Shown in pieces: positions 6,365 through 30,900 of a DNA stretch of 49,893 bases. The notes under the pieces are model-generated. The model was not told the origin of the DNA and made no database searches. It saw only the letters and a program-made list of their open reading frames with translations. How positions within the stretch are numbered: the stretch's first letter is position 1; each line of letters starts with the position of its first letter. Source of the stretch: Candidatus Poribacteria bacterium (GTDB lineage: Bacteria > Poribacteria > WGA-4E > WGA-3G). The stretch is taken from positions 1,383-51,275 of the forward strand of contig VXOP01000382.1 of NCBI GenBank assembly GCA_009839975.1, given 5' to 3'. The translations under genes and the position numbers were made by a program.

Positions 6365-6406
6365 ATTATTTTTCGGAGTGCAATACTGACGTAAAGTTAC
6401 TGTATG

Positions 6407-6519
6407 TATAGTGGATTTCAGAAATAATGAAACACTCCACAACGGGCGAGGAGACCTCGTCCCTACGCGGGGTGGTCTACAAACGCTGAAATGTCTCTTT
6501 AATTAATGACCTAACTATA
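6407..6519. mobile_element. MITE-like element (family A) with TATAGT...ACTATA ends and an internal GTAG REP hairpin
   Basis: Left end TATAGTGGATTTCAGAAATAATGAAACA; right end (reverse complement) TATAGTTAGGTCATTAATTAAAGAGACA. Internal GTAG-GGACGAGG-TCT-CCTCGCCC on the - strand (6444-6466). Second copy at 46056-46178. Confidence 0.75.
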
Positions 6520-6550
6520 ATCTCACTCATTTCAGTATAATAATGATACT

Positions 6551-9682: not shown

Positions 9683-9688
9683 ATTACT

Positions 9689-10264
9689 TTACTCCTTACC
9701 CAAATGAAATCTACTCATCGGCGTATATACTGCTCCAGTTGGGCGCAATTCGCTTTTGACAAGTGTAATCTCATCTACTGCCATAGATGTATTCTGTATC
9801 GTCTGATATTCCTCAAACAGATCAACGTTTCCTCTCAAGTCTTTCTGTTGTCTCAGTCTTGCCAATGTTACATGTGGATGAAATCGTTCATCACTCTTAA
9901 CATCACAGTGCAACAGGGCGTTGTTAATGTATTTACTTAAATCTGTCGTTATGTTTCCCCCTTGCTTTAATCCTATCCATAATACGCGTGGACGTGACAA
10001 ATTCGGAAATGTGCCAATTCCACCAAATTCCAGATAAAAAGGTTTCTGTTTTATTGCGACTTTGTCTATAGCATTACAGACATCAGAAATACTATTTTTC
10101 TTTACGTCCCCAAGGAACTTCAATGTCAAATGGAAGTTTCCGGTTTTTGTCCAAGATGCTTTTCCAATTTCTGTTCTCAATTCATTCTGAATCTTCTCAA
10201 AAACCCTTTGAACGCGGACTGGAATCTCAATAGCAACAAAGCACCTGATGTAAACAGTTTTCAT
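9689..10264 (-). CDS. thpR: RNA 2',3'-cyclic phosphodiesterase (2H family), copy 1
   Basis: RCFVAI, HLTLKFLG and FHPHVTLAR (two HxT motifs), SEL.P.GAVY; directly upstream of recA. Confidence 0.92.
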   Translation of the reverse strand: MKTVYIRCFVAIEIPVRVQRVFEKIQNELRTEIGKASWTKTGNFHLTLKFLGDVKKNSISDVCNAIDKVAIKQKPFYLEFGGIGTFPNLSRPRVLWIGLKQGGNITTDLSKYINNALLHCDVKSDERFHPHVTLARLRQQKDLRGNVDLFEEYQTIQNTSMAVDEITLVKSELRPTGAVYTPMSRFHLGKE

Positions 10265-10287
10265 TCCATTTATCCAACAAAACTAAC

Positions 10288-10881
10288 CTATGTTTTAGCA
10301 GAAAATACTTTACGGTTTCCGTATAAAAATTCAATTCCAGATGCGACAGTTAAAACAACCGGTAGAAGCATCATAAAAAAAATCGGACCATACTGTTGTA
10401 TAACAAACTCTGTGTCTATAAAGAATATTAGTAGAACTAAACTGATAGTAATAATAGTCAGTTGTGTTGCCGTCTTATATTTCCCCCATTTGTTTGCAGA
10501 TATAACATCTCCATTCTTAGCAACGACAAAAATACGGACTGTCGTTACGACGAACTCACGTCCGAGTATAACCACTACCATCCATATAGGAATAAGTCTG
10601 ACATTATTTACTAAAAGTTCATGTTGAAATAGACAGAAACTAATCAGTGCTGTTGCTACTAATACCTTATCAACAATAGAGTCCATGAAACTACCGAATT
10701 CTGTTATACCCTCTTTTCGTGCGATTTTTCCATCTAATAGGTCAGTTATAGCTGCTAGGCCGAAACAGACTGCTGAAGGAAGCATCATTTTCGCACGAAA
10801 GAAGAAGAAAAAAGGGACAGTTAGCAATAAACGCGTAAAAGTCAGAAGATTAGCCAAACGAAAATATTGATGAGAACTCAT
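10288..10881 (-). CDS. pgsA: CDP-diacylglycerol--glycerol-3-phosphate phosphatidyltransferase, copy 1
   Basis: AN.LT..R, TDLLDGKIAR...TEFGSFMDSIVDK CDP-alcohol phosphotransferase motif, GKYKT..Q. Confidence 0.9.
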   Translation of the reverse strand: MSSHQYFRLANLLTFTRLLLTVPFFFFFRAKMMLPSAVCFGLAAITDLLDGKIARKEGITEFGSFMDSIVDKVLVATALISFCLFQHELLVNNVRLIPIWMVVVILGREFVVTTVRIFVVAKNGDVISANKWGKYKTATQLTIITISLVLLIFFIDTEFVIQQYGPIFFMMLLPVVLTVASGIEFLYGNRKVFSAKT

Positions 10882-10903
10882 AAATGCCTATTTTTCCGAA
10901 AAA

Positions 10904-11278
10904 TCAATCACCTCTGCATCCTGTGTCCAGGGCGTGTTCTACATCAATAAATGCAGCGATTCCACCCCTTTTCTGTGCTTCAGCAACGATGTGTAATGCT
11001 AACGTTGTCTTCCCTGTTCCTTCATGTCCAAAGACTTCAACGATTCTACCGCGTGGAACACCCCCAACACCTAATGCCAAATCAAGTGCAAGTGCGCCAG
11101 TAGGTATAACCTCCACTGGAACAACTTCGTCACCTGTTAGACGCATGATGGCACCTTTTCCATAGGCACGTTCAACTTGAGAAATAGCTTGGTCTACAGC
11201 TTTTCTCTTCTCTGCTGCATTTTTCTGTTCTTCAGCACTTAATTCATTTTCCACATTCGTTCTATCATCTTTCGCCAT
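10904..11278 (-). pseudogene. recA: 3'-truncated recA (first 119 aa plus GCRGD) produced by the duplication
   Basis: Identical to the recA N-terminus up to EHALDT, then reads out of frame into the duplicated lolA 3' end. Confidence 0.9.
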
Positions 11279-11284
11279 ATTACT

Positions 11285-11860
11285 TTACTCCTTACCCAAA
11301 TGAAATCTACTCATCGGCGTATATACTGCTCCAGTTGGGCGCAATTCGCTTTTGACAAGTGTAATCTCATCTACTGCCATAGATGTATTCTGTATCGTCT
11401 GATATTCCTCAAACAGATCAACGTTTCCTCTCAAGTCTTTCTGTTGTCTCAGTCTTGCCAATGTTACATGTGGATGAAATCGTTCATCACTCTTAACATC
11501 ACAGTGCAACAGGGCGTTGTTAATGTATTTACTTAAATCTGTCGTTATGTTTCCCCCTTGCTTTAATCCTATCCATAATACGCGTGGACGTGACAAATTC
11601 GGAAATGTGCCAATTCCACCAAATTCCAGATAAAAAGGTTTCTGTTTTATTGCGACTTTGTCTATAGCATTACAGACATCAGAAATACTATTTTTCTTTA
11701 CGTCCCCAAGGAACTTCAATGTCAAATGGAAGTTTCCGGTTTTTGTCCAAGATGCTTTTCCAATTTCTGTTCTCAATTCATTCTGAATCTTCTCAAAAAC
11801 CCTTTGAACGCGGACTGGAATCTCAATAGCAACAAAGCACCTGATGTAAACAGTTTTCAT
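11285..11860 (-). CDS. thpR: RNA 2',3'-cyclic phosphodiesterase, copy 2
   Basis: Translation identical to 9689-10264. Confidence 0.92.
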   Translation of the reverse strand: MKTVYIRCFVAIEIPVRVQRVFEKIQNELRTEIGKASWTKTGNFHLTLKFLGDVKKNSISDVCNAIDKVAIKQKPFYLEFGGIGTFPNLSRPRVLWIGLKQGGNITTDLSKYINNALLHCDVKSDERFHPHVTLARLRQQKDLRGNVDLFEEYQTIQNTSMAVDEITLVKSELRPTGAVYTPMSRFHLGKE

Positions 11861-11883
11861 TCCATTTATCCAACAAAACTAAC

Positions 11884-12477
11884 CTATGTTTTAGCAGAAA
11901 ATACTTTACGGTTTCCGTATAAAAATTCAATTCCAGATGCGACAGTTAAAACAACCGGTAGAAGCATCATAAAAAAAATCGGACCATACTGTTGTATAAC
12001 AAACTCTGTGTCTATAAAGAATATTAGTAGAACTAAACTGATAGTAATAATAGTCAGTTGTGTTGCCGTCTTATATTTCCCCCATTTGTTTGCAGATATA
12101 ACATCTCCATTCTTAGCAACGACAAAAATACGGACTGTCGTTACGACGAACTCACGTCCGAGTATAACCACTACCATCCATATAGGAATAAGTCTGACAT
12201 TATTTACTAAAAGTTCATGTTGAAATAGACAGAAACTAATCAGTGCTGTTGCTACTAATACCTTATCAACAATAGAGTCCATGAAACTACCGAATTCTGT
12301 TATACCCTCTTTTCGTGCGATTTTTCCATCTAATAGGTCAGTTATAGCTGCTAGGCCGAAACAGACTGCTGAAGGAAGCATCATTTTCGCACGAAAGAAG
12401 AAGAAAAAAGGGACAGTTAGCAATAAACGCGTAAAAGTCAGAAGATTAGCCAAACGAAAATATTGATGAGAACTCAT
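11884..12477 (-). CDS. pgsA: PgsA, copy 2
   Basis: Translation identical to 10288-10881. Confidence 0.9.
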   Translation of the reverse strand: MSSHQYFRLANLLTFTRLLLTVPFFFFFRAKMMLPSAVCFGLAAITDLLDGKIARKEGITEFGSFMDSIVDKVLVATALISFCLFQHELLVNNVRLIPIWMVVVILGREFVVTTVRIFVVAKNGDVISANKWGKYKTATQLTIITISLVLLIFFIDTEFVIQQYGPIFFMMLLPVVLTVASGIEFLYGNRKVFSAKT

Positions 12478-12483
12478 AAATGC

Positions 12484-13206
12484 CTATTTTTCCGAAAAAT
12501 CAATCACCTCTGCATCCTCTGGTACGTTGAACTTAAATACATCTGAAGACAATTCTTGGTCTCGTTTTATCTTAGAGAGTGATGTGATCACGCTTCGACG
12601 ACTCTTATCCGGGAACTCTATTACATACCCAAACTGGACAGGTAGCCAGTCCTTCTCTTGAACCCAAATCTCAAGTGTCTCTTTTTCTGTGTTTTCATCA
12701 GATGTTTTATTATTTGTTCTATTTAGCAGATGCGGTTTAGGTGTCAGTCTTATCTGAAATACTCCTTTTGCATTTGCAGCCTCATCTGGCACCAACTCCA
12801 TATCCCAATTCTCCGATACATCTTCAAGAGATGCCCCGATACCAGGTAGAATCTCACGACGTTCAGAAGTATCCCATTTTCTTTTATTTACTTGTTTGTA
12901 TAAAGGTACATAAGACCATGCGTAAGAACCATCTAAAACGATAACTTTTACAATCTGTTTGGGATTCTTTGGTGAGACAAATTCCTTTCGCAGCAGATTT
13001 GGCTTGCCGAATGTAAAGTGTCCAGTTGTCACATTTTTGCGTGTCTTATAGAGTGTGGTCTCCTGAAATTCTGCACTGAAGTTTTTTGACTTATTGTAAG
13101 CAGTTTTGAAATTTTCAAAAATCTCGTCCACTGTAAAACTGTGTCCATTGACAACAATTACAACGCTTAGACAAAATAAAATTAGCAAATACCGCAGATG
13201 TTTCAC
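12484..13206 (-). CDS. LolA-family outer-membrane lipoprotein carrier-like protein
   Basis: Signal peptide, FSAEFQE..., G.F.F.KPN, V.DG..AW.Y.P..KQV, C-terminal F.F.VP.DAEVID; AGGAG RBS before a GTG start. Confidence 0.8.
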   Translation of the reverse strand: MKHLRYLLILFCLSVVIVVNGHSFTVDEIFENFKTAYNKSKNFSAEFQETTLYKTRKNVTTGHFTFGKPNLLRKEFVSPKNPKQIVKVIVLDGSYAWSYVPLYKQVNKRKWDTSERREILPGIGASLEDVSENWDMELVPDEAANAKGVFQIRLTPKPHLLNRTNNKTSDENTEKETLEIWVQEKDWLPVQFGYVIEFPDKSRRSVITSLSKIKRDQELSSDVFKFNVPEDAEVIDFSEK

Positions 13207-17348: not shown

Positions 17349-18437
17349 TTAAGGTTTCCACAAGGTTGCTTCAATAAATCTTTCGCCATCAGGCTCTTCA
17401 TTGAAATAGTATACAGTTATCACAGTCCCATCTGATCTTTGAACAGTCCTCGGATACCCTATATCGTGATCGCCGCCGTTTTCTCGTAGGACAATCTCAT
17501 CAGACCATGTTTCTCCGGCATCGCTACTGAGCTTTGCACAGATACGGTACGGTGCATCCCTGAATCCATAAGTAAGACATATTCTACCATCTATGAGTTG
17601 TGTTAACGTAGGTGGATTTCCGCCTCTGCCCGTATTTTCTACCGCACGATTTATGAACTGCCAAGTTTTCCCGTTGTCATTAGATGTGTAGAGATCAATC
17701 CAATTTTTGAGTTCTTCCCAGTCTTTTCCCCTTTTCTTGCTCATGCCACGGCACCTCACTGCGACTAAAACATCACTTTCAGAGAGTCTTACACTTGCTG
17801 GTATTATTGCAAACCCATCAGGTTCGGGGCCAATCTGAGAATGCAGGGAGAAGGATTTTGCCCCATCCTCTGTCCGTGCACAGAATATCAAACCCTCATT
17901 GCCGTTTGCTTTTGAAGCAGTAAGAAACAGCAAACATTCTTCAGAATTCGAGACGAGATAGTCTGTTCGTGCAGCAATACCTGTATAACCAAACATCGGT
18001 AGTTCATACGGACCATCCCAACTATTACAGCGGTCTGTTGATGTATAAAACCATGAATGTGCACCAGCACTAAGACCGGTTCTGCTGCACATCATAGCGA
18101 AATCAGGATGTTCAAGATTCACGCTCTGCGGTGCTTTGAAAGCAGTTTCACCTTGTAGTCTGTGTTTTCCAGCCACATGTTCATCCGCAGATAAAGTGCC
18201 TAACCCCGGTAGTTCACAAGGTGTTTCCGCTATTTCCCATGTCTCACCCCCATCTACACTTCTCGCTTGCATGGCGGTAAAAGGTTTATCGCGATCTCTC
18301 CGATGAAATCCGGCATCTGATTTGTGGTACCCTACAGTAAAACCCACAACTATTTCGTTTTCCCATGACCATATACCGTAGTTTGCGGGCCATCCTGCGA
18401 AACGTCCCGGTTCACGATAGATTGTTATGTGTTGCAT
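17349..18437 (-). CDS. BNR/Asp-box sialidase-fold protein
   Basis: Five Asp boxes (SVDGGETW, STDRCNSW, TEDGAKSF, SNDNGKTW, SSDAGETW) and a DIGYP motif; no signal peptide. Confidence 0.85.
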   Translation of the reverse strand: MQHITIYREPGRFAGWPANYGIWSWENEIVVGFTVGYHKSDAGFHRRDRDKPFTAMQARSVDGGETWEIAETPCELPGLGTLSADEHVAGKHRLQGETAFKAPQSVNLEHPDFAMMCSRTGLSAGAHSWFYTSTDRCNSWDGPYELPMFGYTGIAARTDYLVSNSEECLLFLTASKANGNEGLIFCARTEDGAKSFSLHSQIGPEPDGFAIIPASVRLSESDVLVAVRCRGMSKKRGKDWEELKNWIDLYTSNDNGKTWQFINRAVENTGRGGNPPTLTQLIDGRICLTYGFRDAPYRICAKLSSDAGETWSDEIVLRENGGDHDIGYPRTVQRSDGTVITVYYFNEEPDGERFIEATLWKP

Positions 18438-18547
18438 CTCGTCTCCTTTGGAAATAGATTATGTTTCATTATACCAAATTAGAGTGATTTATCATGTTTT
18501 ATAGGGGTGTGTAAAGTGAAAGGAAGTTGCGATCTTTTGCATCCATT

Positions 18548-18580
18548 GCAGGTTATCAATAATCTGAATAAATGCACAGT
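18548..18580 (-). repeat. Possible highly degenerate fourth copy of the type ISP gene 3' end
   Basis: GCAGGTTATCAATAATCTGA vs GCAGACCATCAATAATCCGA (27979-27998); encodes QIIDNL vs RIIDGL/CIIDNL/RIIDNM in the other copies. Confidence 0.4.
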
Positions 18581-18632
18581 CTGTTTGAATAAGCGGTGTA
18601 CTTTTTTAATATCCTTAAAAGCCATCACTTTC

Positions 18633-19835
18633 CTATAAGGATTCTGCTGCAAAGATTGTCAGGCATAATTCTTCGTTATGGAGTTCATAGAGAGGTGTTT
18701 TTCCACTCAATTCTTCGCTTTCGTTCAGAATGATGCCGACACCTTCACCACGTCCATCTAAAAAGTGTCTTCGCTTCACTTGATTTTCTACAACTTCATC
18801 TAAAGTAATTTCCGACAGTAGACGTGCTAAGAGTTCATTACGGGTTGCTTGACTATAGGGTAGTTTTTCTATTGTTACAGTATTTGCTAATGCACCTGGG
18901 GAATATAGTTCAAGACGATCAGCAAACATGAACAGACGTATTTTTGACTCGCCTTTAGAATAATCTCTGTGAACGACTGCGTTAACAATTGCTTCAAATA
19001 TTGCACGCATACTATATTGGGGTTGGTCTATCCTTCCAACTTCCTTACGTGCTGATACCTTATTGTGTTTTTGAACAAATTGGTATGCATCTATAATTTG
19101 TTGATCAAGTGGTCCTCTAAAATCTTTGGCATCAATCTGGTAATTGGCATCTTTTACTTTACTGCTATAATAGACAGCTTGAATAAAACTGTTGTAGAGA
19201 TAATCATCGGGTGTGTCGTGGCACATCAATACACCGGCAACAGAAGCACGAATCTCCCGACCTTCTTGAACGAGTAAAGTTCTTTTCAGGAGTAGGTCTT
19301 CTATATCTTCTTCAGATACATCTTCTTTGATGAATCGTCGATAGTGCGATTCTCTTAATGTGCCTTTATGGGTGTTTGGAACTAATTGTTCATCAAATCT
19401 GATAATTCTGGCTTGAGAACGTCTTTGCATTAACCGTGCCAACTGGTCGGGCGGCAATTCTATCTTACTACTTCCTCTTCGGGTAAAATATCCATTAGGA
19501 GATCTGTGAACAAAAAGACTTCTCGGCACCTCTGTTTTTAATATGTTTTTATCATCAATCCGCAATTTTTCTGTGAAAAAGTCAACAGCGGGTTTAATGC
19601 TATCTGTGCATATTTCAACAACCATTTTTTCTACTCTATCCAATTCCTGTTGTTCGAGTCCGACGATCTCTTTGTTGTCATCAATACCGATCAGTATTGT
19701 TCCTCCTTGGGCATTTGCAAACGCAGCTATCTCGTCTGCCAAACTGTCTCTGTGTGGCATCACTCTTTTGAACTCAATTGTTGTGTCTTCACCAAGTATA
19801 ATTTTCTCTATAAGTTCAGTTACACTATGAAACAT
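18633..19835 (-). CDS. Schlafen/AlbA_2 nuclease-like domain fused to HATPase_c_4 (RecG C-terminal-like) domain
   Basis: GEDTTIEFK, EIAAFAN..GG.ILIGIDD; EAIVNAVVHRDYS, RLELYSPG, RN.LLARLL, GEG. Starts 2 nt after the PHP-ATPase stop. Confidence 0.85.
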   Translation of the reverse strand: MFHSVTELIEKIILGEDTTIEFKRVMPHRDSLADEIAAFANAQGGTILIGIDDNKEIVGLEQQELDRVEKMVVEICTDSIKPAVDFFTEKLRIDDKNILKTEVPRSLFVHRSPNGYFTRRGSSKIELPPDQLARLMQRRSQARIIRFDEQLVPNTHKGTLRESHYRRFIKEDVSEEDIEDLLLKRTLLVQEGREIRASVAGVLMCHDTPDDYLYNSFIQAVYYSSKVKDANYQIDAKDFRGPLDQQIIDAYQFVQKHNKVSARKEVGRIDQPQYSMRAIFEAIVNAVVHRDYSKGESKIRLFMFADRLELYSPGALANTVTIEKLPYSQATRNELLARLLSEITLDEVVENQVKRRHFLDGRGEGVGIILNESEELSGKTPLYELHNEELCLTIFAAESL

Positions 19836-19837
19836 AA

Positions 19838-22474
19838 CTAATCTCCGAGATGAATACGCTTAAAACGCTGTTCAAATGCCTGTTCTCCACCTTCAAGAGT
19901 ATTACATATTGCGTCCCGGACTTTCTTTTCCTGTATATTGGAAGCTAGTCTTACCCGAGTTTCAGTACGCACGACATGAAGTGGAAAAACTATTTCTGCA
20001 TTGCCGTTAATCACAATGTTGGCATTGTGGGTCACAACGATGACCTGACGCTTGCTTTTCGTATTTCGTAACTGTTTGACGATCAAGTCGTAAATTAACT
20101 CGTTATCCAAATCGTCTTCGGGTTGATCTAATAGAAGTGGCTCATCACCGTAGGAGAGAATAAATGCCAATAGAGCAGCTGCTTTTTCTCCAGGTGATCC
20201 CAGTTTAATCGATTTGCGATTGGGACCATAGGTGATTTCCAGTTCATCTCCAGGTAACCACAACATTAAATCGATCAAAGATTCTGGTATCAACGACTGC
20301 AAATGATTAGCGAACCATTTTTGTTCAGCCTTTCTATCCCCATTACGAATTGCTATGATTGTTTCCTTAAGCTGATAAATCTTTTCGTTGTCCTCATGTT
20401 CATAGATTTCTTTTAAATTCTCAAAATCTCTATCAAAACGATTAGGACATTGCAATATACGTCGAATCTCTTTCTCAATATTGTCCCAAGTCTCTCCATA
20501 AGGCAAGATTTCTATATTAACGAATTGATTGCCTTGTAAAATAGAGGTTAAAAATTCTTGACGTTTTTCTGAGAGCATTTTTCTATTCTCTTTGATTTGC
20601 TCAAACACCTCTTGTTTTTCATCCTCTAACTTATGCAAACGCGACTTGAGATCATTAATTGAATCTAATTCTCTTTGTACGTTCTTTTGTTGTGTCAGTA
20701 GCAAAGGATATTTATCTGGATCTATACCTTGTTGTTCAAGTTCGGAACGCAATTGCTCATACTGTGCCATATCTGTCTTGAGTAATTGCATCCAATCTGC
20801 AGTATTTTTCTCAATTTGCCACTCAGTAATAACAGAACTCGCCTCTTGAGCCAATTTGCTGAATCGGTCATCAATAGATTGCCACTTTTTGTTTGTTGTT
20901 TCTATAGCCATCAAAATATCCGTGTGTTCGCTAAAATGCTGTGAATTAAAATCCGCTGGAGCAATAGTTCCCTGTGTCTCCAAAAGACGATCGCGCATAT
21001 CTTCCCATTTACGCACTAAACGTTCAAGTTCGTTTAACTGTTGCTGCCGATTACGGTAATTTTGCAGCACGTCTTTATGTCCCGATTTTTCGATCTGCTC
21101 AATCTGTCTTGTGAGATCATTCAACTCCCCACGCAACCTTCTTTCCTCAGCAATTTTATCATTCAACTCTCGTCTATTAATCTCAATATGTTTGTAACGA
21201 TTTTCCAAGTCTCTTTTCTGTGTTTTAATCCTCACAGCATCAACTTGCGGTGCTTCATCAATAATCTCAATCAGCGCACTTGGCTTCTTAGATAATTCAA
21301 AAATCTGCTTTTGACTATAAATACGAACTGGAAAAAGTGATCTAATCTCTCCATCACAAGATTTCCAAGTTCCATCATCTTTTTCCTCTTCTATAGAGGG
21401 ATAATCTGGATCTGGATTGTTGGACCAATTCAAGCGATATCGCACTTCATCTTTGCGATAGATTAAAAATATCTTACTTTCTTCAATCAGCAGGTTAGCA
21501 TTTCCTACTTCAAAGTACCTGCTACTATCGGATTTTAATGTATCTGGAAGATCTTTATCCCTCCGTAGAACCAAGCGCATGAATTCCAACAATGTTGACT
21601 TGCCAGTACCTCGTCCACCAATGATTGCATTGAAAAATGGACTGAATCGACAAGTCAGTGGTTTAGAACGTCCAATGTGCTTAGCATTGCAAACTTCCAA
21701 TTCATCTAAATAGAACTTTACACGTCGGTTCGGGTCAGAGTTTATGTCACGATTTACGGAAGCAGTGCCGTCTATCAGCGCAAGTTTTAGTCCTTCTATA
21801 GATGGTTTAGCCATTTTGATCCAAGTAAATGTACCAAAGTTTTCTTTCTTGAAATCGTGTACATCAGACCCAATGACTTCAGTCCATTGTAATTTTTCGT
21901 CAATATATAATTGGGGTTTTTGATAATTGCTATCACATAACTCCATTGCGTAAATATTTTGATTTTGCAATATCTGTTGCAATGATAATCCATTATCTTC
22001 AAACAATCCACTTTTTCCGTCAACATGTGCAGGAATAGGTATACCGCCATGTTCTGTAATTACATCAATGACATCGGTAAGACTTTTCTTTGTCACACCA
22101 TCGGTCTTTCCTTTTGTGCCATGATATTCAACTGCTCCGAGCAATCCATCAATATGTCCCTTGTCCTTATCGCTTCCAAAGATTGCTAATACATGGACAT
22201 TTCCACTTACTGAGATTTCTACACCTGGAAAGAGATATAGGGTCTTATACCAATCTGGAGGGTTATTCTTCAGTTCATTCAAAACGCTTTTTAATTCATC
22301 AATCCAGCCGCCACTGTTATGGTCGGTAATCGCAACACACTCAATTCCCTTATCCATAAATGCTTTCAACCATGATTCATGCGTTATATCTTCGTCTTTG
22401 TAATCCGAGGCAGGGGTGTGTGTATGAAAATCAAATTTCCACCACCGAGCTCCCGGAAATTGCAACTCATTCAT
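19838..22474 (-). CDS. PHP phosphoesterase + ABC/SMC-type ATPase (TrlF/Ppl-like defence protein)
   Basis: PHP: DFHTHTPAS, AITDHN, PGVEI, IPAH, GSDVH. ATPase: GGRGTGKST, YSQKQI, coiled coil, GSPGEK, LLLDQPEDDLD, VTHNAN. Confidence 0.88.
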   Translation of the reverse strand: MNELQFPGARWWKFDFHTHTPASDYKDEDITHESWLKAFMDKGIECVAITDHNSGGWIDELKSVLNELKNNPPDWYKTLYLFPGVEISVSGNVHVLAIFGSDKDKGHIDGLLGAVEYHGTKGKTDGVTKKSLTDVIDVITEHGGIPIPAHVDGKSGLFEDNGLSLQQILQNQNIYAMELCDSNYQKPQLYIDEKLQWTEVIGSDVHDFKKENFGTFTWIKMAKPSIEGLKLALIDGTASVNRDINSDPNRRVKFYLDELEVCNAKHIGRSKPLTCRFSPFFNAIIGGRGTGKSTLLEFMRLVLRRDKDLPDTLKSDSSRYFEVGNANLLIEESKIFLIYRKDEVRYRLNWSNNPDPDYPSIEEEKDDGTWKSCDGEIRSLFPVRIYSQKQIFELSKKPSALIEIIDEAPQVDAVRIKTQKRDLENRYKHIEINRRELNDKIAEERRLRGELNDLTRQIEQIEKSGHKDVLQNYRNRQQQLNELERLVRKWEDMRDRLLETQGTIAPADFNSQHFSEHTDILMAIETTNKKWQSIDDRFSKLAQEASSVITEWQIEKNTADWMQLLKTDMAQYEQLRSELEQQGIDPDKYPLLLTQQKNVQRELDSINDLKSRLHKLEDEKQEVFEQIKENRKMLSEKRQEFLTSILQGNQFVNIEILPYGETWDNIEKEIRRILQCPNRFDRDFENLKEIYEHEDNEKIYQLKETIIAIRNGDRKAEQKWFANHLQSLIPESLIDLMLWLPGDELEITYGPNRKSIKLGSPGEKAAALLAFILSYGDEPLLLDQPEDDLDNELIYDLIVKQLRNTKSKRQVIVVTHNANIVINGNAEIVFPLHVVRTETRVRLASNIQEKKVRDAICNTLEGGEQAFEQRFKRIHLGD

Positions 22475-22525
22475 AACAGATCACTCCTAATTCTGTGAAT
22501 TTGTGTTTCCCAAATCTATTATACC

Positions 22526-23152
22526 TCAATACAGAGGTGTTGGTTTCAAAAGTCGACTATTCTTCTCATAGATGTCTTGGATGCCGTGGTTGTCTTGGAT
22601 GCTTTTTGCCTCGTAGAGCGGGACACCTTGGTGTTTTTTCTGCAAGATGTCAGCAACACTATGTGCCCACTTCTCAACTTCTTCAGAAGTAGTAAGGGGT
22701 ATCCCAAGTGAGACGAAAGCAGGAACCTTACTGATATCTACTTCATGGATCAGATGTGCTATCAGAGGGTGTGGCTGATCCAAAGGCGGAGTTTCTTTAA
22801 AGGGTTGCGCATATCGTTGTCGTCCTCGGGCACCGCCAATTTCATAAGGTATCCAAGGTGATGTAAACGTTCCTGGTCCGATGATACCTAATAAAGCAGA
22901 AGATGCATCCAATCCCCGTTCAATACACAAAGCAGTTTTGATGTCATCATTTTGGGCTTGTGCGTGCTGCATACATTTATCGTCTTCATCTAACCAATAA
23001 TCAAGTCTGTCTACTTCCTTTAGTATTTCCACACATTTTCGTGCCATGAGTTTGTCACATATTGTGCGTCTGTAGGAAATGAACACAATTGATTCTGTGT
23101 CTGGTTCAAAACTGCGGACAGGACCAACTTCAAAAAAGTTCTTTATAGACAT
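22526..23152 (-). CDS. TIR-domain protein (TIR_2-like)
   Basis: VFISYR..., DYWLDEDD, I.RGL..S..LL.II...T..SPWIPYEIG with the catalytic Glu retained. Confidence 0.8.
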   Translation of the reverse strand: MSIKNFFEVGPVRSFEPDTESIVFISYRRTICDKLMARKCVEILKEVDRLDYWLDEDDKCMQHAQAQNDDIKTALCIERGLDASSALLGIIGPGTFTSPWIPYEIGGARGRQRYAQPFKETPPLDQPHPLIAHLIHEVDISKVPAFVSLGIPLTTSEEVEKWAHSVADILQKKHQGVPLYEAKSIQDNHGIQDIYEKNSRLLKPTPLY

Positions 23153-23266
23153 TGTCTTTCCTTTTCATCTGTCAAACGTTAATAGGGGACAATTACTTTC
23201 TAAGTTTTATATAAAATGAACAACGTCAATCTATACCATTTTATATTGCTAAAGAATTGATCTCCA

Positions 23267-23743
23267 TTATTCTATATCTTCTAAGTTGGTTAGATCTTCT
23301 ACGTCAGCAAGATCGGCAAGAGCTCGTGAGTATTTGCGTAATTCCACCTGAAGCAACTTAAGTTCTTCACGAAAAGCGTTGCATTCTGCCTCTTTCTCAA
23401 AATCACCGGCAATACTTTTTGGATGCCACTTGGCAGTAAATGGACGAACCACTTGGTTAAGAACTACGACTGCAATTTTCGTAAACTCAATGCAGTTTTG
23501 TCCTTGTTCTTTAAGGATTCTTCTCGTAGTTTTAAACAGCGAATAAATACTATCTAACGCTGTTTTCTCATCACCAGATTCGGTGGGCAATGCCTGTGTG
23601 GTAATTCTTGTAAGTAACTCAATATACAGTTTCCAAGCAGCTTCTCTGTCCCCTGGTTTGGGAGACCACTCTGCCTGTAAAATGCTTGCATTAATTTTCA
23701 GACTATCCAATCCCCATTGTTTCAACCAATTTTTTAAATTCAT
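23267..23743 (-). CDS. Uncharacterised helical protein translationally coupled to the TIR gene
   Basis: AAW.LYIELLTRITTQ.L...GDE..ALDSIYSLF..TR, LNQVVRPFTAKWH; ATGA overlap with the upstream TIR stop. Confidence 0.85.
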   Translation of the reverse strand: MNLKNWLKQWGLDSLKINASILQAEWSPKPGDREAAWKLYIELLTRITTQALPTESGDEKTALDSIYSLFKTTRRILKEQGQNCIEFTKIAVVVLNQVVRPFTAKWHPKSIAGDFEKEAECNAFREELKLLQVELRKYSRALADLADVEDLTNLEDIE

Positions 23744-24300
23744 TTAGACCACCTTTCGCCCGAACGGTTATTTTTAAACGAATCACGAGAATTGACGGGC
23801 AGTATCTCTGTGCTTCGCCTTCGTTGAAAAGCGTCATGTATCCAAGACTGAACGGTACGTGGATTTTCGCTCCAATTGTAAATTTTAGCATATCCACACT
23901 CAATATTATCGTGGAGTCTTGGAGGTATTGTGTGTATGTAATAGTTGTTAGGATAATCGGGTGGTCGCGGATATGTCGGCAATAAAATCCCTAAGAGACC
24001 AGAACGAGAACTGGCTTTTGTCTGCCGTATACTGGAGCCAATTTCCCAATCGACATATTTTCGTTGCCACGTATGGGCACCGATGAGAACAACTGTCACT
24101 GTGGAATCTTGCAGATAGTTCTCCCTTATGATTTGAAAAACCCGATCTGTTGAGAGTCTGGTATCATCAATGTCTCCTATTTCAACGGATTCTGAAACCA
24201 TGATATCATGGATGTCTGAAAACATGCGTTCAAACCAGTCCCGATAATATTGGTCTTCATCATGGTAATAGCTAACAAAAACTCGATGTCTGTTGTTCAT
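23740..24300 (-). CDS. ThsB-like TIR protein (MTH538/DUF1863 type)
   Basis: HRVFVSYYH..D, IR.NYL.DSTVTVVLIG..TW.RKYVDWEI.SS, GLLGILLP, IPPRL.DN. AGGAGG RBS supports the start at 24300 (MNNRH). Confidence 0.88.
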   Translation of the reverse strand: MNNRHRVFVSYYHDEDQYYRDWFERMFSDIHDIMVSESVEIGDIDDTRLSTDRVFQIIRENYLQDSTVTVVLIGAHTWQRKYVDWEIGSSIRQTKASSRSGLLGILLPTYPRPPDYPNNYYIHTIPPRLHDNIECGYAKIYNWSENPRTVQSWIHDAFQRRRSTEILPVNSRDSFKNNRSGERWSK

Positions 24301-24352
24301 TAGACGCCTCCTTTGTTGTTTATGTTTAAACACTTTAGTCTCTTAATATACA

Positions 24353-24540
24353 TTATCCATCCGCTATTTCAGCAGGCATATTGTCAATAATCCGCGCCGA
24401 TCCCACACTCATATAAACAATACGTTTAATTGCTGCAACCAAACCACGAGGGCAACAAACCAACCGTTCGGATCGTTGACAATACCGTTGTCCTTGTCTG
24501 TTTTTTATAGTCCCAAACAATTAACTATCCCAGAGCGGTG
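24353..24540 (-). pseudogene. Degenerate copy of the type ISP gene 3' end
   Basis: Encodes KTDKDNGIVNDPNGWF(frameshift)PRGLVAAIKRIVYMSVGSARIIDNMPAEIADG*, versus KTDKDSGIVNDPNGWFADPRDLVTAIKRIVYVSVESARIIDGLPAEITSD* in the intact gene. Confidence 0.92.
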
Positions 24541-24575
24541 GACATCTTCTGGGACAATCGAATTTAAATGTGTCA

Positions 24576-25511
24576 TCATATCTCGTAGCGATAGGTCATT
24601 TGTTTTTTCAGATGCCAAAAGAGTGCCCTCACACCGTCAACAGTGGTTTCAGCTTCCATGAGTTCGGGTAGGCTGTTTACTGTGAACTCAGGGTCATCCA
24701 TTGGTGTCGTGATATAGTGCATAACTTGTATGGGTGTCCAATATATGAAATCGCAGTAAATCTTATGTTCTATTTCATCAGAAAACCAACCACTTTGTCG
24801 CATTTCTACCAATTCAGCAAAATTACTCTGTATACCGAATTGCATCAGTGAGATGACGTGTAATTGTTGATTGCCATTGCGCGTTTGATCATATTGTGTT
24901 TGGTATTCGTAAACTTGATCAAGGAGTTCTTTGGCTTTTTGGTTCCAAGGGTGTTTATTGAGTAATAAACTAACAGGTTTACAAGTATACCAAAGACCTT
25001 CTAACGTTTGTTTTATATTGACGTGGTCGGGGGGTTGATTTTGAAAAAGTGATAATTGGTGGCTGTCGCTATCGTTCTGGATCGATATTAACAATTCTTG
25101 CCAGTGTTCACAATGTCTTGCAATGTTCTCCAATACTTTATCTTTGACTGATTCTTTCATTTCATGCACATCATAGTAATTTCCCCAGTCGCTACAGAAA
25201 TCATTGAAATCCATTAATGCAAAATGTAATATTTCAGATATCTCGTATCGTTTTTTCATCCATTCTAAGTGTGAAGACGGTTTGGGTAGATGTGTGAGTA
25301 TATGATATAGCATCACAAGGTTGCCTGTCTTTATTCCGTAATATCTCTCTTCTTTCTCTTCATTTTCAAGTTCGGTAAATGCTTCTTTTATTGTTTTGTT
25401 ACGCGATAATTTGTATGGATATAGCGTGAGAAGCGCATTTAGACGTTCTATCGGTTCGCGCAGTGCATCAAGTTCATTCTTAAGTTCTTTTTTCCATTCT
25501 TCTGGTGTCAT
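24576..25511 (-). CDS. Hypothetical alpha-helical protein with a two-fold internal repeat
   Basis: Long co-oriented ORF; AAGGAAG RBS favours the MTPEEW start; repeat LKNELDAL..LNALL.LYPY vs IKQTLEGL..VSLLL.KHPW. Confidence 0.7.
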   Translation of the reverse strand: MTPEEWKKELKNELDALREPIERLNALLTLYPYKLSRNKTIKEAFTELENEEKEERYYGIKTGNLVMLYHILTHLPKPSSHLEWMKKRYEISEILHFALMDFNDFCSDWGNYYDVHEMKESVKDKVLENIARHCEHWQELLISIQNDSDSHQLSLFQNQPPDHVNIKQTLEGLWYTCKPVSLLLNKHPWNQKAKELLDQVYEYQTQYDQTRNGNQQLHVISLMQFGIQSNFAELVEMRQSGWFSDEIEHKIYCDFIYWTPIQVMHYITTPMDDPEFTVNSLPELMEAETTVDGVRALFWHLKKQMTYRYEI

Positions 25512-25543
25512 ATCAACTTCCTTCATTATCTCTGTACCTATTC

Positions 25544-25636
25544 TTAGGTTCCAGTTGCCATTATCTCAGCAGAAAGGTTGTCTATTATACACGTAGATTC
25601 CACACTCACATAAACAATACGCTTAATAGCCGCAGT
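25544..25636 (-). pseudogene. Second copy of the type ISP gene 3' end
   Basis: Encodes TAAIKRIVYVSVESTCIIDNLSAEIMATGT*; 25595-25624 is identical over 30 bp to 28001-28030 (AGATTCCACACTCACATAAACAATACGCTT). Confidence 0.92.
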
Positions 25637-25715
25637 TATACACAAGAACTGTGTAAGATTGATTTTCAGCTATCCATATACATTCTGGTTTATCGCTATA
25701 AGTAATACTCTTTGA

Positions 25716-27200
25716 TTACAATCCACACAAAACTTTATGAATTTCAAGCATTGCTAGTGTATCCAGCTTGCAATATTCTTTTAGGTGTTCAATCATATCG
25801 CTTTGTTTACTTTCACTTGTTGTATTAATCATTAGATCCCAGAGAGCTTGTGCTTCCAGACCATCGTGTACAACATCCAGATTTTTGAATGACAACGAAG
25901 GCACTAAAACAGGGAGCACATCCTTGAGAGAATTGGAACCGCAAAAATCAGGATGCATATAATGGTTTTTAAATATGTCTAACTGATCCCAAAGCCTATT
26001 AATGATTGATTCAAGTTCAGAAGAGTATTCAGGAAAAGAGACAGTAAGTTCATTAAGTCTCAACCGTTCAAAAGTGGCATTAAAAACTACTACAGAACCA
26101 GAAGGTGAAATATGGTTAAACAAAGATTCTAACAGAGGTCTCCTTGGATCGGATGTATCGGTATGTAGATATTCGTAATGTGTAGCAGATCCATCCGATT
26201 TCAATACGTGGCAACTATACTGAAACGGAAAGTGTTGGCAAGGACGTACCTCCTCAAACCTTGGGATCGGCGGATTATCCGTTTCGAAATCAAAGAAGTG
26301 AACTGGATACTCTAAATCGGATAAAAGACGTTGCACTGCCGGAATATCAATTACTGGTTGTTCATCTATAACGCTATTGACGTAAGTCCGTTGTTTTTCA
26401 CTCAGGGCAAAATCGTCTGGGACATCCTCAAGACTAAAGATACCTCTTTCTATCAACTCGCCCTTTTTATTCCAACGAAGTCCTGGAATAGTAAAAATGG
26501 ATTTTTGGGGAACATCCATCCAACAATACGTCTCCTTAAAAGGACAAGTATAAGGCTTTTTACACTGATCTCCAATCAAAACCTGTGGTTCATCGTTGCC
26601 ATTGATTATGGTTTTGAATGTTTCGACATTGCTAGGAACATCGCCCATCAACTGATTGACCTGTTCCGTTGCATCCTCAATAATAAACAAATTACCCAAA
26701 TCTGGATAAACACACTCTTTACTATCTATGAGCATCAATTTTGTTTTGGAGATAGATAACCCGTGTCCAGCTAAGACGTACTTTTGGATAGCTAAGTCAT
26801 GTAAGTATTCTACCTTTACTATTCTTGAGTCCTTAACTGTTTGATTGACTGTTGATGCTTTTACTTCAATAATGTTCCACGAGTTTGAATCTTTTTGGAT
26901 AATATCACATCTGACCAGAACATCATTGAAAATGAAAGAAGCTTCGAAAATACAGGAATCGCCACGTTCTATTGCTTCTGCTGTTTGTTCTACAGAAACC
27001 AACGGGTCTATAGCATCAATCAGTACTCCATTAGTAAAGTGGTCACGAGCTAAAATCCCCACTTCTTTACTCTGATCAAATTTTCGTTTTTGCGATATAG
27101 AAGTATCTGCAGCCCTATTTGGGTGTTTCACTTCATTCCATAGGCGTTTATGACATTGTAGACCACTCAAGTACTTTGATTTCGTAAGATAATTTGCCAT
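25716..27200 (-). CDS. DUF2779-containing nuclease (Cas4/RecB-like PD-(D/E)XK + RNase H-fold domain)
   Basis: LTKSKY..GLQCHKRLW, FEA.F, RCDI, IEVKAS, DLAIQ.YVL, C.KPY.CPF...C; HFFDFET, PFQYS.H, FNATFE, DQLDIF, SLK.VLP, EYC.LDT. Confidence 0.85.
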   Translation of the reverse strand: MANYLTKSKYLSGLQCHKRLWNEVKHPNRAADTSISQKRKFDQSKEVGILARDHFTNGVLIDAIDPLVSVEQTAEAIERGDSCIFEASFIFNDVLVRCDIIQKDSNSWNIIEVKASTVNQTVKDSRIVKVEYLHDLAIQKYVLAGHGLSISKTKLMLIDSKECVYPDLGNLFIIEDATEQVNQLMGDVPSNVETFKTIINGNDEPQVLIGDQCKKPYTCPFKETYCWMDVPQKSIFTIPGLRWNKKGELIERGIFSLEDVPDDFALSEKQRTYVNSVIDEQPVIDIPAVQRLLSDLEYPVHFFDFETDNPPIPRFEEVRPCQHFPFQYSCHVLKSDGSATHYEYLHTDTSDPRRPLLESLFNHISPSGSVVVFNATFERLRLNELTVSFPEYSSELESIINRLWDQLDIFKNHYMHPDFCGSNSLKDVLPVLVPSLSFKNLDVVHDGLEAQALWDLMINTTSESKQSDMIEHLKEYCKLDTLAMLEIHKVLCGL

Positions 27201-27227
27201 TGTTATTCTCCTTCATTATTTTGCACA

Positions 27228-27433
27228 ATAAGTCGTTTTGGAATTGAGAAATTTGACATTTACTGTCAAAAGGGCATCGCTTCCTTATCTGGTAAGCATT
27301 TAGAACAATGAACATAGCGTCCTTAAAAAAATAAAGAATATCCTTGTTGTGAGAATCAGATTAGGCAATACCACTTATGTTTACTGGGTTAATACCGCTA
27401 TTTAGATATTTTCTCAAGTCCAAAACGACTTAT
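27228..27433. mobile_element. MITE-like element (family C), 206 bp, 24-bp terminal inverted repeats
   Basis: ATAAGTCGTTTTGGAATTGAGAAA (27228-27251) vs the reverse complement of 27410-27433, ATAAGTCGTTTTGGACTTGAGAAA (1 mismatch); no ORF inside. Confidence 0.8.
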
Positions 27434-27955
27434 ACCGTTAAAGTTTAATACGTTATGATGTATTTTTGCAAATCTTTAATGAAGTTTACATTACCAAAGA
27501 ATTCATCAAAAACAGGATGTTTTATGATCTGCTGTGCCTACGTACTAATTGTGTTTTGGCGCGTTAAAGCATCGTGAAGTATACCTCTCAACGTTGTGTG
27601 GAAAGAAATAAATGTGAAGTGCAACGTTATCAGGATGCAGTAGCAAGTTTGTGATGTTGTTAACAATTCTGTTGTAGACTCATTCCATGATGTTTGAAGT
27701 TATCCACCTCATATAATCTCTTTCTGTAGAAACTTCCCGCCAATTATCTTCGATTGTGTATCCATCAGTTAGAATGATTGGGTTGAAACGCCGATCTACA
27801 ATCCCTATTGTAATTTATTATTTTATTGATTATCTCAATGCTGTCCCGTGAAGGACTCACAAGGAACACAATCCGCATCGGACGTATGTCTATGTAAATG
27901 GAATATGGATTAGTAAACATAATGTTAGTTGAGTTTCTCCAACAGATGTACCGTT

Positions 27956-30900
27956 TTAATCTGAAGTTATCTCAGCAGGCAGACCATCAATAATCCGAGC
28001 AGATTCCACACTCACATAAACAATACGCTTTATTGCCGTAACCAAATCACGCGGATCAGCAAACCAACCGTTTGGGTCATTAACAATGCCACTATCTTTG
28101 TCTGTTTTGATATAATACCTGTCAATGAACCACTCCAGCGGTGTTCTACCATTGACAACATATCCCGATGAGTCTTTCGGAATATTTGTTATGCGGACAT
28201 TATCATTGATGGCAAAGATTCTTTTCTGATCATCAATAAACTTCATTGATCTTTCAGTTAGCAGGAAAAGGTTCGGGTCAGCATGTTCAATATCAGTTGG
28301 TGGTGATTTCATATTGGGATACTCAACGCTAAGTGGGTGTTGTTCACACGTCTCATAGTTGAGGTGGAGTTCTGCTAATTTATATCCTGCTTCAGCGAAA
28401 GCAGTGAAGTCTGGTGCATAAGGGATACGCGGGAGCATCTTTGATAAGTCGTTTGCAAACTGTTCTCGGTAACTGGGGGCATGGAGAATGCCGTAGACAT
28501 AATAAAAGATGTCGTCTTTGGTGATTGTATCATCACTGTAATGTTCTTGGAATGCCTTTAGTGCTGTGTCTGAGATGTTGTCAATACGATCAGGTGAGTC
28601 GTCAACATCAAGAAGGGTTTCTGATGCGTCTTGCTTATCCGATGATTTTGGATATTGCCACCGTGGGAAGCATTGAGCTCCTGCTTCATTGAAATTGAGA
28701 TCTGGCATTGTATCAGTCATTAGAACAGAATATTGATTTTTCCAACTTTTGCCGGGAACACAAATCACACGGTTTTCGTCAGAAATGTCAAAGAAAATTT
28801 GTCCCATGTTTTCTTGTGCAAAGGCATAATCAGCATAGCAATTAATACCAATAAATGGACGATACATGACCTTTCGGATGTAGTCTTCTTTGAATTCAAC
28901 CAATTTCTTGCGTTCCAGTTTCTTCTTGAGATCTGCACCCCACTTAATATGTGAGTTGTGCAGTAGAGTTACTTCATCCACAGTAAGTTCAGGATTTTCA
29001 TCAAGTTCAGCAATTGCATTGAGGTAGTCTTGTGTCATCCGTTTCGCGTTTTCAGCACAAACATCGTATGAGAAATTGTAGATGTAAACATCCCTACCTG
29101 TTCCGTATCCTCGCGAATACAACCCAAAAATGGCATCATCTTTCTTTCTTGATTTTGCATCCTTCGTACCAAGTGGATAAAACTGACTAAATGCTTCACT
29201 GCGTTGCCCGATCCAATCGTAATGTGTATCAGGTGTAATGGTGTTCCAATCACTGAATCCTGTGATTGACTCTGCCTCATGTAGTGCCTCTAATTTTTCC
29301 TCGCGTGTAAGATAGTCGCCGATGTCACGGTATTGAATTTTACAACCCTTGTATGTCGCGTTTGGATTTTTGACAAGGATTGAAATAGCAACGGGTGCTC
29401 GCGAACCACTACCAAATATTTTGCCTCCTTCTTGACGTGATCGATCTCCTTGGGTGCGCTGATTTCCTCGGAGATGAAGAACGTGGATTGAACTAAACTC
29501 CTCTGCTAAACATGCACGGACTCCTGAATCGGTGTTTCCATCAATCCATGAACCGCTGGTAACAAAGGCAATGATACCCTTTTCACCAATTCTGTCGGAT
29601 GCCCATCGAATCGCCATCTTATAGGTATCGTATAGACTATTCTTATTGTTACCTTGTGAGTACTCAGCATAAGTTCCCTTTATACGTTCTTCAAGTTCAG
29701 GGTAAGGTACGTTTTGATTGTTGTCTGCGGCACTCCTCTGTCCCATTGACCAAGGTGGATTACCAACAATGACTTGGATTGGCAGTTTCTGTTGACGTTC
29801 GGCGCGTTTGTTATTATCTGGCAGCCATTCTTTTGGGAAAAGGGTTGTAACGTCTTTTTTGTTAAGATTGAAGGTGTCGGTTAGGACGATGCCGTTGAAA
29901 GGTTCGTAAGTGCTGTCTTCTCCGCGTCTACCACGGAATGTCTCTTCTATGTTGACGGTGGCGATGTAGTATGCCAACAGGACGATCTCGTTTGCATGGA
30001 GTTCTTCTCGGTATTTGCGTTCAAGGTCGGCATCTTGGATAATATTGGACTGCAGCAGACGTGTGAGAAATATACCGGTACCGGTGAATGGATCCAACAC
30101 ATGCACACCTTCATCGCTAAGACTGCGTCCGAATTCGTCTTGCAATACCTCGTTGGCACTATGGAGTATGAAATCAACTACCTCAATTGGTGTGTAGACA
30201 ATACCGAGACGTTCTACCTCCTTTTTCAAGGCAGTCACGAAAAACTTCTCGTAGAGTTCCAATAGGACGCGTTGACGTGCTTCGCTATTGTCAAGTCCCT
30301 GTGCACGCATTCGGACGCTTTCATAAAACCCTTCCAGATCACGCGTTTCGTTTTCCAGTCCGAATTCGCTAAAATCGTTTTGGAGTTTGTTTAGTGCGTT
30401 TGCTACTGGGTTTCCGGATGCGAAATCGTAGTTATCAAAGAGTGCTTCAAAGACAGGGCGTGTAATAATGTGTTGTGCCATCATATCAATAGCACTCTCA
30501 CGGGTGATTGAGTCGTTGATTGTTCCCATTAACTCGTTGTGGAAATCGTCAAACCACTCTTGTAGTGCGCTGTTTTCAGGATTTTCCAGTAGGTTTTCTA
30601 TCCGTCCGACGAGTCTTTTGAATATATCTGCGACATCTTTTGCCCAACTTTCCCAGTATTTTCTATCACCGCATTTCTCCACTATTTTAGCGTAGATGGC
30701 ATCGGCTGGAATACCGAAAGGCAGCAGTAACTGATCAGGATCTACTGTTCCTTCTCCATATTCACCATCGCCATTTTCATCTTCAAAGATAATAATTTCA
30801 GTCGGTTCGTTGTTAAGGTCAATTTTATTGATTTCGGCATTAAGCCTGTCATCGTGGGAACGGAGTGCGCGGAGGACACCCCACACGGTAGCGAATCTTT

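Follow-up and report, generated by a model that had tools for sequence, protein, structure and literature searches.

Repeated 3' ends of a type ISP restriction-modification gene punctuate a poribacterial defence island and may be scars of joined island versions

How a defence island can be assembled without the machinery of mobile elements is an open question, and the locus described here may be read as a record of such an assembly, with one gene-end relic per accretion event. It lies in a stretch of 49,893 nt (hereafter the window) of contig VXOP01000382.1 (positions 1,383 to 51,275, forward strand) from a Candidatus Poribacteria bacterium (GCA_009839975.1), in which the minus strand carries every gene from 17349 to 46006. 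The island is anchored by a type ISP restriction-modification (RM) gene, behind which blocks of cargo genes are interspersed with short copies of the 3' end of that same gene (Table 1). Type ISP enzymes combine in one polypeptide an Mrr-type nuclease, a superfamily 2 (SF2) helicase-like motor, a coupler, an N6-adenine methyltransferase and a C-terminal target recognition domain (TRD). The window gene has the five corresponding Pfam domains, in the expected order, in a single protein; its PADLOC label is REase_MTase_IIG. We consider it reasonably probable that the copies are displaced gene-end scars, left when allelic versions of the island were joined head-to-tail or one-sidedly, and later reused as patches of homology.

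The layout of RM gene, cargo blocks and end copies, which an initial annotation had proposed from the sequence alone, was borne out by Pfam and PADLOC, and the two clear copies (A and B) were recovered as significant by genome search, by a gene-end profile and by a repeat finder. When the last 195 nt of the ISP gene were run against the whole 4.78-Mb genome, copy B was matched with an E value of 1.7e-31 and copy A with 3.2e-12; the other strong match was a second ISP gene on another contig (3.7e-22), and the next best had an E value of 0.125. The repeat finder returned a direct-repeat family of 87 gapless nucleotides at 24365-24451, 25562-25648 (69% identical to the reference copy) and 27968-28054 (83%), and paired 24453-24504 with 28057-28108 at 81%. 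Copy A shares a run of 30 identical nucleotides with the ISP end and can be translated over about 27 codons, in frame to its own stop, while copy B gives about 52 codons with one frameshift. The distance from the stop of each copy to the start codon of the following cargo is 17 and 19 nt, shorter than the 30-55 bp first annotated.

The codons of the copies also carry information on their origin. Compared with the resident ISP gene, 13 codons in the core of copy A are identical, 6 differ synonymously and 4 change the amino acid, the corresponding numbers for copy B being 16, 7 and 6, so that about half or more of the changed codons are synonymous. The cores are 80-83% identical to the resident end and 85-88% identical to the ISP ends of other genomes. 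As they are thus as close or closer to foreign alleles and have changed at synonymous positions, both copies therefore diverged largely while part of working genes, in agreement with the annotated origin from different ISP alleles. The faint copy C fared less well, since on its own it gave no significant match in the genome search with the ISP end, in tblastn with the whole protein or with the gene-end profile. Nevertheless, it aligns with clear end copies found at the same place, directly behind the Schlafen stop, in three related genomes (G024, G034 and G062; related genomes are designated G and extracted loci L), and is probably a decayed end copy. Six sequencing runs contain part of the window and four of them, from one sponge-metagenome study, contain at least 85% of its words, all stored as contigs. 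Both clear copies are bridged by contigs of these four runs, and the array is thus no artefact of a single assembly. In one run, a contig matching only 27987-28036 has foreign flanks and represents a further tail copy in that sample.

Similar relics were found well beyond the window, in the genus and the order at large. The last 60 ISP residues have matches in 51 of 61 related genomes, and among the 150 of 220 matches listed, at least 21 with 65% identity or more lie in open frames of at most 135 aa, one of which abuts its own frameshifted gene body. As a control, ISP residues 121-180, a conserved piece from the N-terminal part, were searched in the same genomes and gave 42 rows, two of them in such short frames, with a few further rows corresponding to broken or internally deleted genes. 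In a phylum-wide draw of 151 genomes, tail matches were present in 132, with at least 29 short-frame tail fragments among the 150 of 545 matches listed, sister genera and families included. For a census, 20 loci around isolated fragments were combined with the 19 kb downstream of 20 further ISP genes picked solely for their full length, and a profile of 21 ISP gene ends was run over the window and these 40 loci (736,304 bases). The 59 profile matches consisted of 25 ISP gene ends and 34 relics. One or more relics follow 8 of the 25 ISP genes, and all 13 relic matches in those loci lie on the strand of the gene; the initial annotation had proposed to look for arrays of 3'-end copies at other type ISP loci.

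The relics are confined to the end of the gene. When the whole ISP protein was searched by tblastn against the same 41 sequences, a single non-terminal fragment was obtained, the coupler-like segment behind the window gene. A search with 26 alleles showed that the 29 relics then known reach between about 31 and 260 codons upstream of the stop (8 of at most 41 codons, 11 of 48-65, 6 of 73-93 and 4 of at least 115). Given these lengths, the relics are therefore best described as tails rather than decayed whole genes, and the alignments give them no common left limit. Leftovers of whole tandem RM paralogues with long upstream homology, which had been put forward as an outcome that would overturn the initial annotation, were not seen; the relics are restricted to the end and 25 of the 29 comprise 93 codons or fewer. 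The suggestion that the array might swap TRDs has to be dropped, since the relics hold the conserved tail only and no TRD. Short-frame tail matches were also observed for an RM family of about 1030 aa with Type_ISP_C, whose tail is about 50% identical (e.g., G007, G017 and G032), to which the phenomenon may extend. Some genomes in few contigs have ISP genes split by single stops or frameshifts (several contigs of G001; G005:C1:4025103-4029907), which may be sequencing errors of the assemblies and not real pseudogenes.

Each relic is linked to the cargo behind it. Clustering and naming of the open reading frames (ORFs) revealed a pool of co-oriented cassettes common to the relatives, which includes a 198+539-aa gene pair, the 316-aa gene, Schlafen, Ppl, the ThsB-TIR/X/TIR block, a 917-aa gene, DUF4268 (the PADLOC candidate PDC-S11), a trypsin-like protein and a cyclase of the cyclic oligonucleotide-based anti-phage signalling system (CBASS) with a 2TM effector. 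In the window, the tail of copy A with its spacer and the 316-aa gene corresponds to the full ISP tail of G029 followed by the same gene, which starts there 7 nt past the ISP stop; homologues of the 316-aa protein lie directly behind the ISP gene or ISP cargo in G029, G028 and further genomes. Likewise, the relic of G014 with its tail and the 198+539-aa pair corresponds to the ISP end of G005 with that pair. A single tail type precedes the DUF4268 gene in four genomes, and the 917-aa gene is found behind the ISP gene in G062, behind an end relic in G025 and as a 5' remnant behind the window ISP gene. The slightly overlapping 198+539-aa pair follows the ISP stop directly at 6 of the 25 ISP genes (L060, L069, L072, L074, L079 and L082), in both ISP clades; it has no match in Pfam, PADLOC or NCBIfam and may represent RM accessory genes or a new defence pair. 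On this evidence, the window would consist of four stacked island versions. Before and after states can be compared between G029 and the window (for the DUF2779 block) and between G005 and G014, and both comparisons fit the entry of a new end with its cargo, the older end and cargo being shifted downstream, as annotated at first. Also, several cassette boundaries in the relatives have no relic.

Several joints can be told apart on the left side of the relics. Joint J1 connects the upstream region and 73 codons of purL with ISP codon 1577, where microhomology amounts to 1 nt at most. J2 links the stop of the 316-aa gene plus 17 nt to about codon 1533, and the window, G029 and G024 have an internal deletion in common there. 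J3 connects the Schlafen stop plus about 30 nt to about codon 1568-1572 (G024, G034 and G062; decayed in the window), J4 the DUF2779 stop plus 68 nt to about codon 1582 (copy A of the window), and J5 the stop of the 917-aa gene to about codon 1549 (G025). Compared across the genomes, every left joint presents itself as a one-off illegitimate junction that later spread between species. Of 40 genomes of the genus, 8 have J1, with 9 copies in total, and in five genomes its neighbours differ every time, on the left as well as on the right. In G013, G061 and G027 the real purL follows J1 at a distance of about 1 kb, and G013 has two copies in series. The far border of the island in G029, G024, G008, G021 and G006 is formed by the core gene purL, and J1 therefore joins the right border of the island to its left border. 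Such a joint is what head-to-tail joining predicts; it would result from tandem duplication of the whole variable segment, from integration of a circularised copy or from one-sided illegitimate joining.

Recombination can also be traced inside the relics. The left part of copy B, with the end of the 316-aa gene, best matches the J2 copies of G024 and G029 (84-85%), whereas the closest match of its right part, and of the DNA that follows, is the copy in front of the ThsB-TIR gene in G034 (85-92%). The alignments thus show copy B to be a chimera of two relic types with its breakpoint within the scar, at about codon 1577, the site of the 1-nt deletion. The core of the G014 relic is 97% identical to the ISP end of its own genome, compared with 91% to the best full ISP end elsewhere, which suggests a recent exchange. 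Moreover, in seven further genomes the hotspot between a PEP-hydrolase-like gene and purL is occupied by cassette arrays that lack an ISP gene altogether and are still interspersed with ISP tails, copies of J1 and lone 5' pieces of purL. Relics of the purL 5' part are found upstream of purL in G002, G036 and G027, and behind a WD40 gene both G029 and G021 have a second copy of the last 35 codons of the PEP-hydrolase-like gene, whose left limit is the same in the two. As judged from these comparisons, gene-end relics are not specific to ISP, and other border genes leave relics of the same kind.

Some loci have lost the body of the ISP gene and kept its end, which brings up a passive origin of the relics. 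The arrays could have started as tandem units of a full ISP gene plus cargo, whose redundant ISP bodies were then deleted, the remaining tails being inert in recombination. Loss of the body with retention of the tail is seen in G008, G022, G021, G030 and G019, in which a few start codons are joined to about codon 1546-1553 and the start stub follows the stop of the upstream PEP-hydrolase-like gene, and we judge these to be at least two separate events. Forms with internal deletions that keep both ends exist as well (residues 6-149 fused to 1503-1602 in L054; N- and C-terminus 3.2 kb apart in L050). However, the internal relics have neither a start-codon stub nor sequence from upstream of ISP, being preceded on the left by a cargo stop or a purL 5' piece. 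Passive decay does not predict the joint of the far border gene to codon 1577 (J1), leaves unexplained both the chimera of copy B and the differing neighbours on the two sides of one joint, and sits poorly with 25 of 29 relics being so short. We therefore regard it as unlikely. Near-precise loss of the ISP body was observed at L053, L057, L058, L061, L062, L084 and L086, which resemble a "landing pad" with both gene ends.

The initial annotation had interpreted the conserved gene end as a defined attachment site of an integron-like system, with a recombinase possibly acting in trans. At first sight, the arrangement of direct repeats with co-oriented cargo between them, in which each copy restores a stop codon, would suit such a site, as would the several left limits near codon 1577 and the 30 nt shared by the ISP end and copy A. 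The array has much in common with chromosomal integrons that carry defence cassettes, namely ordered and co-oriented single-function cassettes behind one anchor, with the newer ones nearer to it. It also resembles the accretion of integrative elements and of derivatives without an integrase, the cis-mobilizable elements (CIMEs), in which tandem arrays form behind a gene whose 3' end is repeated between integrase-less units, by means of a neighbouring integrase and fixed attachment (att) cores. The tests of a site gave a different picture. Synonymous-codon identity among the four full alleles is 0.54 in the last 62 alignment columns (42 codons) and 0.65 over 1112 codons, so that for these alleles there is no extra synonymous conservation at the gene end compared with the rest of the gene. 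Single-stranded DNA folds of the three copies, on both strands, have z-scores of 0.25 to 1.71 against shuffles and no hairpin potential.

A recombinase was not found either. As already annotated, there is no integrase in view: no recombinase family was detected among the scanned window ORFs of at least 100 aa, and 20 cargo ORFs of relatives gave none apart from one insertion sequence (IS)-type transposase helix-turn-helix in G022. In the five genomes scanned for tyrosine recombinases (PF00589), the only recombinase type searched genome-wide (serine recombinases and transposases were not), all matches are either on contigs other than those of the arrays or separated from them by 180 kb or more. 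The only match in the window genome is on another contig; G000 and G024 have a single such gene each, far away. An integrase close to an ISP gene was seen once, in G034, 2.5 kb behind a second ISP gene that is broken; no end copy is found within 14 kb, and a tail-bounded element made of that integrase and gene was ruled out. Unlike integrons, the locus has no intI near the array, no attC hairpins, and cassette boundaries that carry no relic; unlike CIME accretion, it has no fixed att core, the left limits of 29 relics ranging from about 31 to 260 codons, and no integrase in the sampled arrays or, for tyrosine recombinases in the five genomes, near them. In addition, the end relics of two other genes, purL and the PEP-hydrolase-like gene, behave alike. 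On these grounds the interpretation as an attachment site could not be upheld, and site-specific integration at the ISP tail is, in our view, highly improbable.

A further possibility is that the tails are kept for a function, as a promoter, translation start context or terminator for the next cassette, or as a small-peptide gene. The short distance between the window relics and the next start codon would agree with this, as would J1, which brings the purL upstream region and a ribosome-binding site and forms an intact frame of 112 codons in G014, and the persistence of relics across species. Against it, most frames are broken, copy B by its frameshift and the copies of G024, G015, G009 and G062 by stops, and many cassette junctions do without a relic. 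A scan of 18300-28300 gave 21 promoter-like sites (31.7 expected from shuffles) and one terminator-like site (6.1 expected), none of them consistently within the copies. We consider a functional element about as improbable as an attachment site.

Thus, we return to the scars of joined island versions. Each relic would be the displaced 3' end of an ISP allele that formerly stood at the head of another version of this chromosomal defence island. A second version, consisting of an ISP tail and its cargo, would have been linked to the resident one in head-to-tail order; conceivable routes are a tandem-duplication joint, Campbell-type integration of a circularised copy, and illegitimate recombination of incoming DNA that is facilitated by homology. 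In each case, a single illegitimate junction would remain on the left side of the old tail. Since the alleles share a tail with a conserved protein sequence, the scars stay 75-95% alike and could serve as short homology patches, at which ordinary homologous recombination would stack, swap and delete co-oriented cassettes, with no dedicated recombinase or att site in the process. The route of the first joining, RecA-type recombination as the driver of the later shuffling and a process that is still active are the parts that we infer. A stronger version of this idea, which we find possible and clearly less probable, is that the islands act as integrase-free cassette stackers. The two arms of J1 are homologous to both borders of any island version, and the joint of purL 5' part and ISP tail would then be a portable two-armed adaptor, through which homologous recombination concatenates allelic island versions, the relics being working sites.

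Several observations weigh against the scar interpretation. The relics, with identities of 69-92%, are old and most of them occur in several species; a few ancient events, passed on vertically, could account for much of the pattern. RecA works poorly on homologous stretches of 90-230 bp that are 80-90% identical. In the contigs of the four runs, which give the assembled order only and hide rare forms, no recombination event was caught in the act, be it as joints, deletion or circular forms, or indels. A comparison of the purL 5' arms with real purL genes, by tree and identity, had no clear branching and did not prove gene conversion. All genomes used for comparison are species representatives, and the runs all come from one study. 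Finally, the several independent-looking left limits that cluster near codon 1577 (J1, a G022 relic and the break in copy B) could mark a preferred site, and four of about seven joint types lie 17-70 nt from a cargo stop codon. Random illegitimate joining would be expected to look less tidy, and a more ordered process, or selection for compact units, may be involved.

C-terminal displacement in Rhs and contact-dependent inhibition (CDI) proteins provides related cases of orphan modules. In the effector-immunity clusters of the Vibrio type VI secretion system (T6SS), illegitimate recombination was proposed to come first and homologous recombination to account for the spread; the authors liken the clusters to integrons and note the likeness of sequential displacement to that of Rhs C-termini (PMC5361080). 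Both systems have conserved and variable pieces, a new module that takes the expressed position while older pieces and their partners are pushed downstream in the same orientation, and no integrase. However, the repeated piece is here a conserved tail downstream of a variable TRD, whereas in Vibrio it is a conserved core that precedes the variable tip of a toxin; the cargo here consists of unrelated anti-phage systems and not of matched immunity genes; and relics of the far border gene (purL 5') also mark joints. The locus does contain anchor fragments, each with the partner genes of a former allele, co-oriented downstream. Its anchor is an RM enzyme and its cargo independent defence systems in place of toxin and immunity, so it works like this family without being a member.

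The second comparison is insertion with long target duplication, described by the Kobayashi laboratory, in which RM genes are the insert and the repeats are nearly identical, e.g., 417/423 (PMC2853133). The likeness to those cases lies in direct repeats longer than 30 bp around an insert, a single copy where the insert is absent, the lack of mobility genes and the involvement of RM genes and gene 3' ends (PMC2853133), and the pairs of window and G029 (for DUF2779) and of G014 and G005 have these repeats, single copies and lack of mobility genes. In contrast to what that source describes, the RM gene's own end is here the repeated target and the inserts are other defence genes, and the window repeats are 69-83% alike, come from different alleles and occur several per array. 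Nearly identical repeats were not found in the window (80-83% for the copies), G014 with 97% being the only such case. No description of RM 3'-end relics that delimit defence cassettes was found in the literature searched. The locus is set apart from the known cases by the repetition of the conserved tail of an RM gene, the independent defence cargo and a border-to-border joint spread through the genus.

The remaining features of the window are listed in Table 1. Cargo 3 is present in its entirety in G034, with 75-92% nucleotide identity and with end copies on its flanks there. The roughly 750 nt between the ISP stop and the DUF2779 gene contain gene relics and a 24-nt inverted repeat, and no long ORF. 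The label of a miniature inverted-repeat transposable element (MITE), given to this inverted repeat at first, was not confirmed, since it is single-copy in the genome and only lone arms resembling it were found, at two loci of relatives, one of them adjoining a J1 joint; its RNA fold has a z-score of -5.3. Similarly, the 316-aa ORF annotated as a repeat protein matches no family in the three databases searched. Past copy C, housekeeping-type content follows, with BNR, S41 peptidase, DUF6785, LolA-like and recA genes; a Pup ligase and a proteasomal-type AAA ATPase are encoded next to recA (4877-8347), and the same genome has PSCyt2/PSD1/DUF1501 genes and many WD40 genes. This region also contains a perfect tandem duplication of 1596 nt (9327-10922 equal to 10923-12518, 0 mismatches) with a LigT-like gene, a CDP-alcohol phosphatidyltransferase gene and the first 124 recA codons. 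The unit is single in G014 and G005; the duplication is an assembly artefact or a very recent event, and its joint has the same topology as the purL-ISP joint.

Table 1. Features of the window, with coordinates counted from its first nucleotide
Feature	Position	Strand	Remarks
Type ISP RM gene, island anchor	27956..32782	-	1608 aa; Pfam Mrr_cat_2, ResIII/Helicase_C, ISP_coupler, N6_Mtase, Type_ISP_C (8.2e-88)
Conserved C-terminal tail, template of the end copies	27968..28138	-	ISP codons 1549-1605; repeat family D1/D2; profile of 21 gene ends, E 2.1e-52
Non-coding stretch 3' of the ISP stop with gene relics	27481..27955	-	5' part of the 917-aa gene at 27726-27923 (85% over 200 nt to L047, blastn); weakly coupler-like at 27481-27736 (31-43% identity to ISP residues 702-787, tblastn)
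Inverted repeat pair	27228..27433	.	Arms of 24 nt, 158 nt apart, I1/I2 96% complementary; directly upstream of the DUF2779 start
Cargo 1: DUF2779 protein	25716..27200	-	494 aa; Pfam PF11074, 8.5e-42; no PADLOC match
End copy A	25544..25648	-	ISP codons ~1582-1605 plus own tail and own stop (25544-25546); gene-end profile E 6.2e-12
Cargo 2: 316-aa protein	24576..25526	-	No match in Pfam, PADLOC, NCBIfam
End copy B	24353..24560	-	ISP codons ~1533-1605 with internal deletion; 1-nt frameshift near 24452; own stop (24353-24355); profile E 1.3e-35
Cargo 3, whole block	18633..24333	-	ThsB-like TIR / 158-aa ORF / TIR / Ppl / Schlafen
ThsB-like TIR	23740-24333	-	Cargo 3; Pfam/PADLOC/NCBIfam
158-aa ORF	23267-23743	-	Cargo 3
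TIR (second)	22526-23152	-	Cargo 3; Pfam/PADLOC/NCBIfam
Ppl/TrlF-type PHP-ATPase	19838-22474	-	Cargo 3; Pfam/PADLOC/NCBIfam
Schlafen AlbA_2	18633-19835	-	Cargo 3; Pfam/PADLOC/NCBIfam
End copy C, probable decayed relic behind the Schlafen stop	18500..18615 (core 18548-18580)	-	Alignment with copies of relatives

For the biology of these islands, the relics would mean that a hotspot can take up entire allelic versions in head-to-tail order, which can later be reshuffled at short patches of conserved sequence. If the islands do act as cassette stackers, a lineage would accumulate, rather than exchange, the defence repertoires of its pan-genome. Since the relics delimit cassettes, uncharacterised genes that occupy relic-bounded slots beside known defence genes such as Ppl, the ThsB-like TIR, CBASS and PDC-S11 become well-founded candidates for anti-phage functions, among them the 316-aa gene, the 198+539-aa pair, the 917-aa gene, the 158-aa ORF and DUF2779. 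The search for end relics of an anchor gene could also be extended to other RM-anchored islands.

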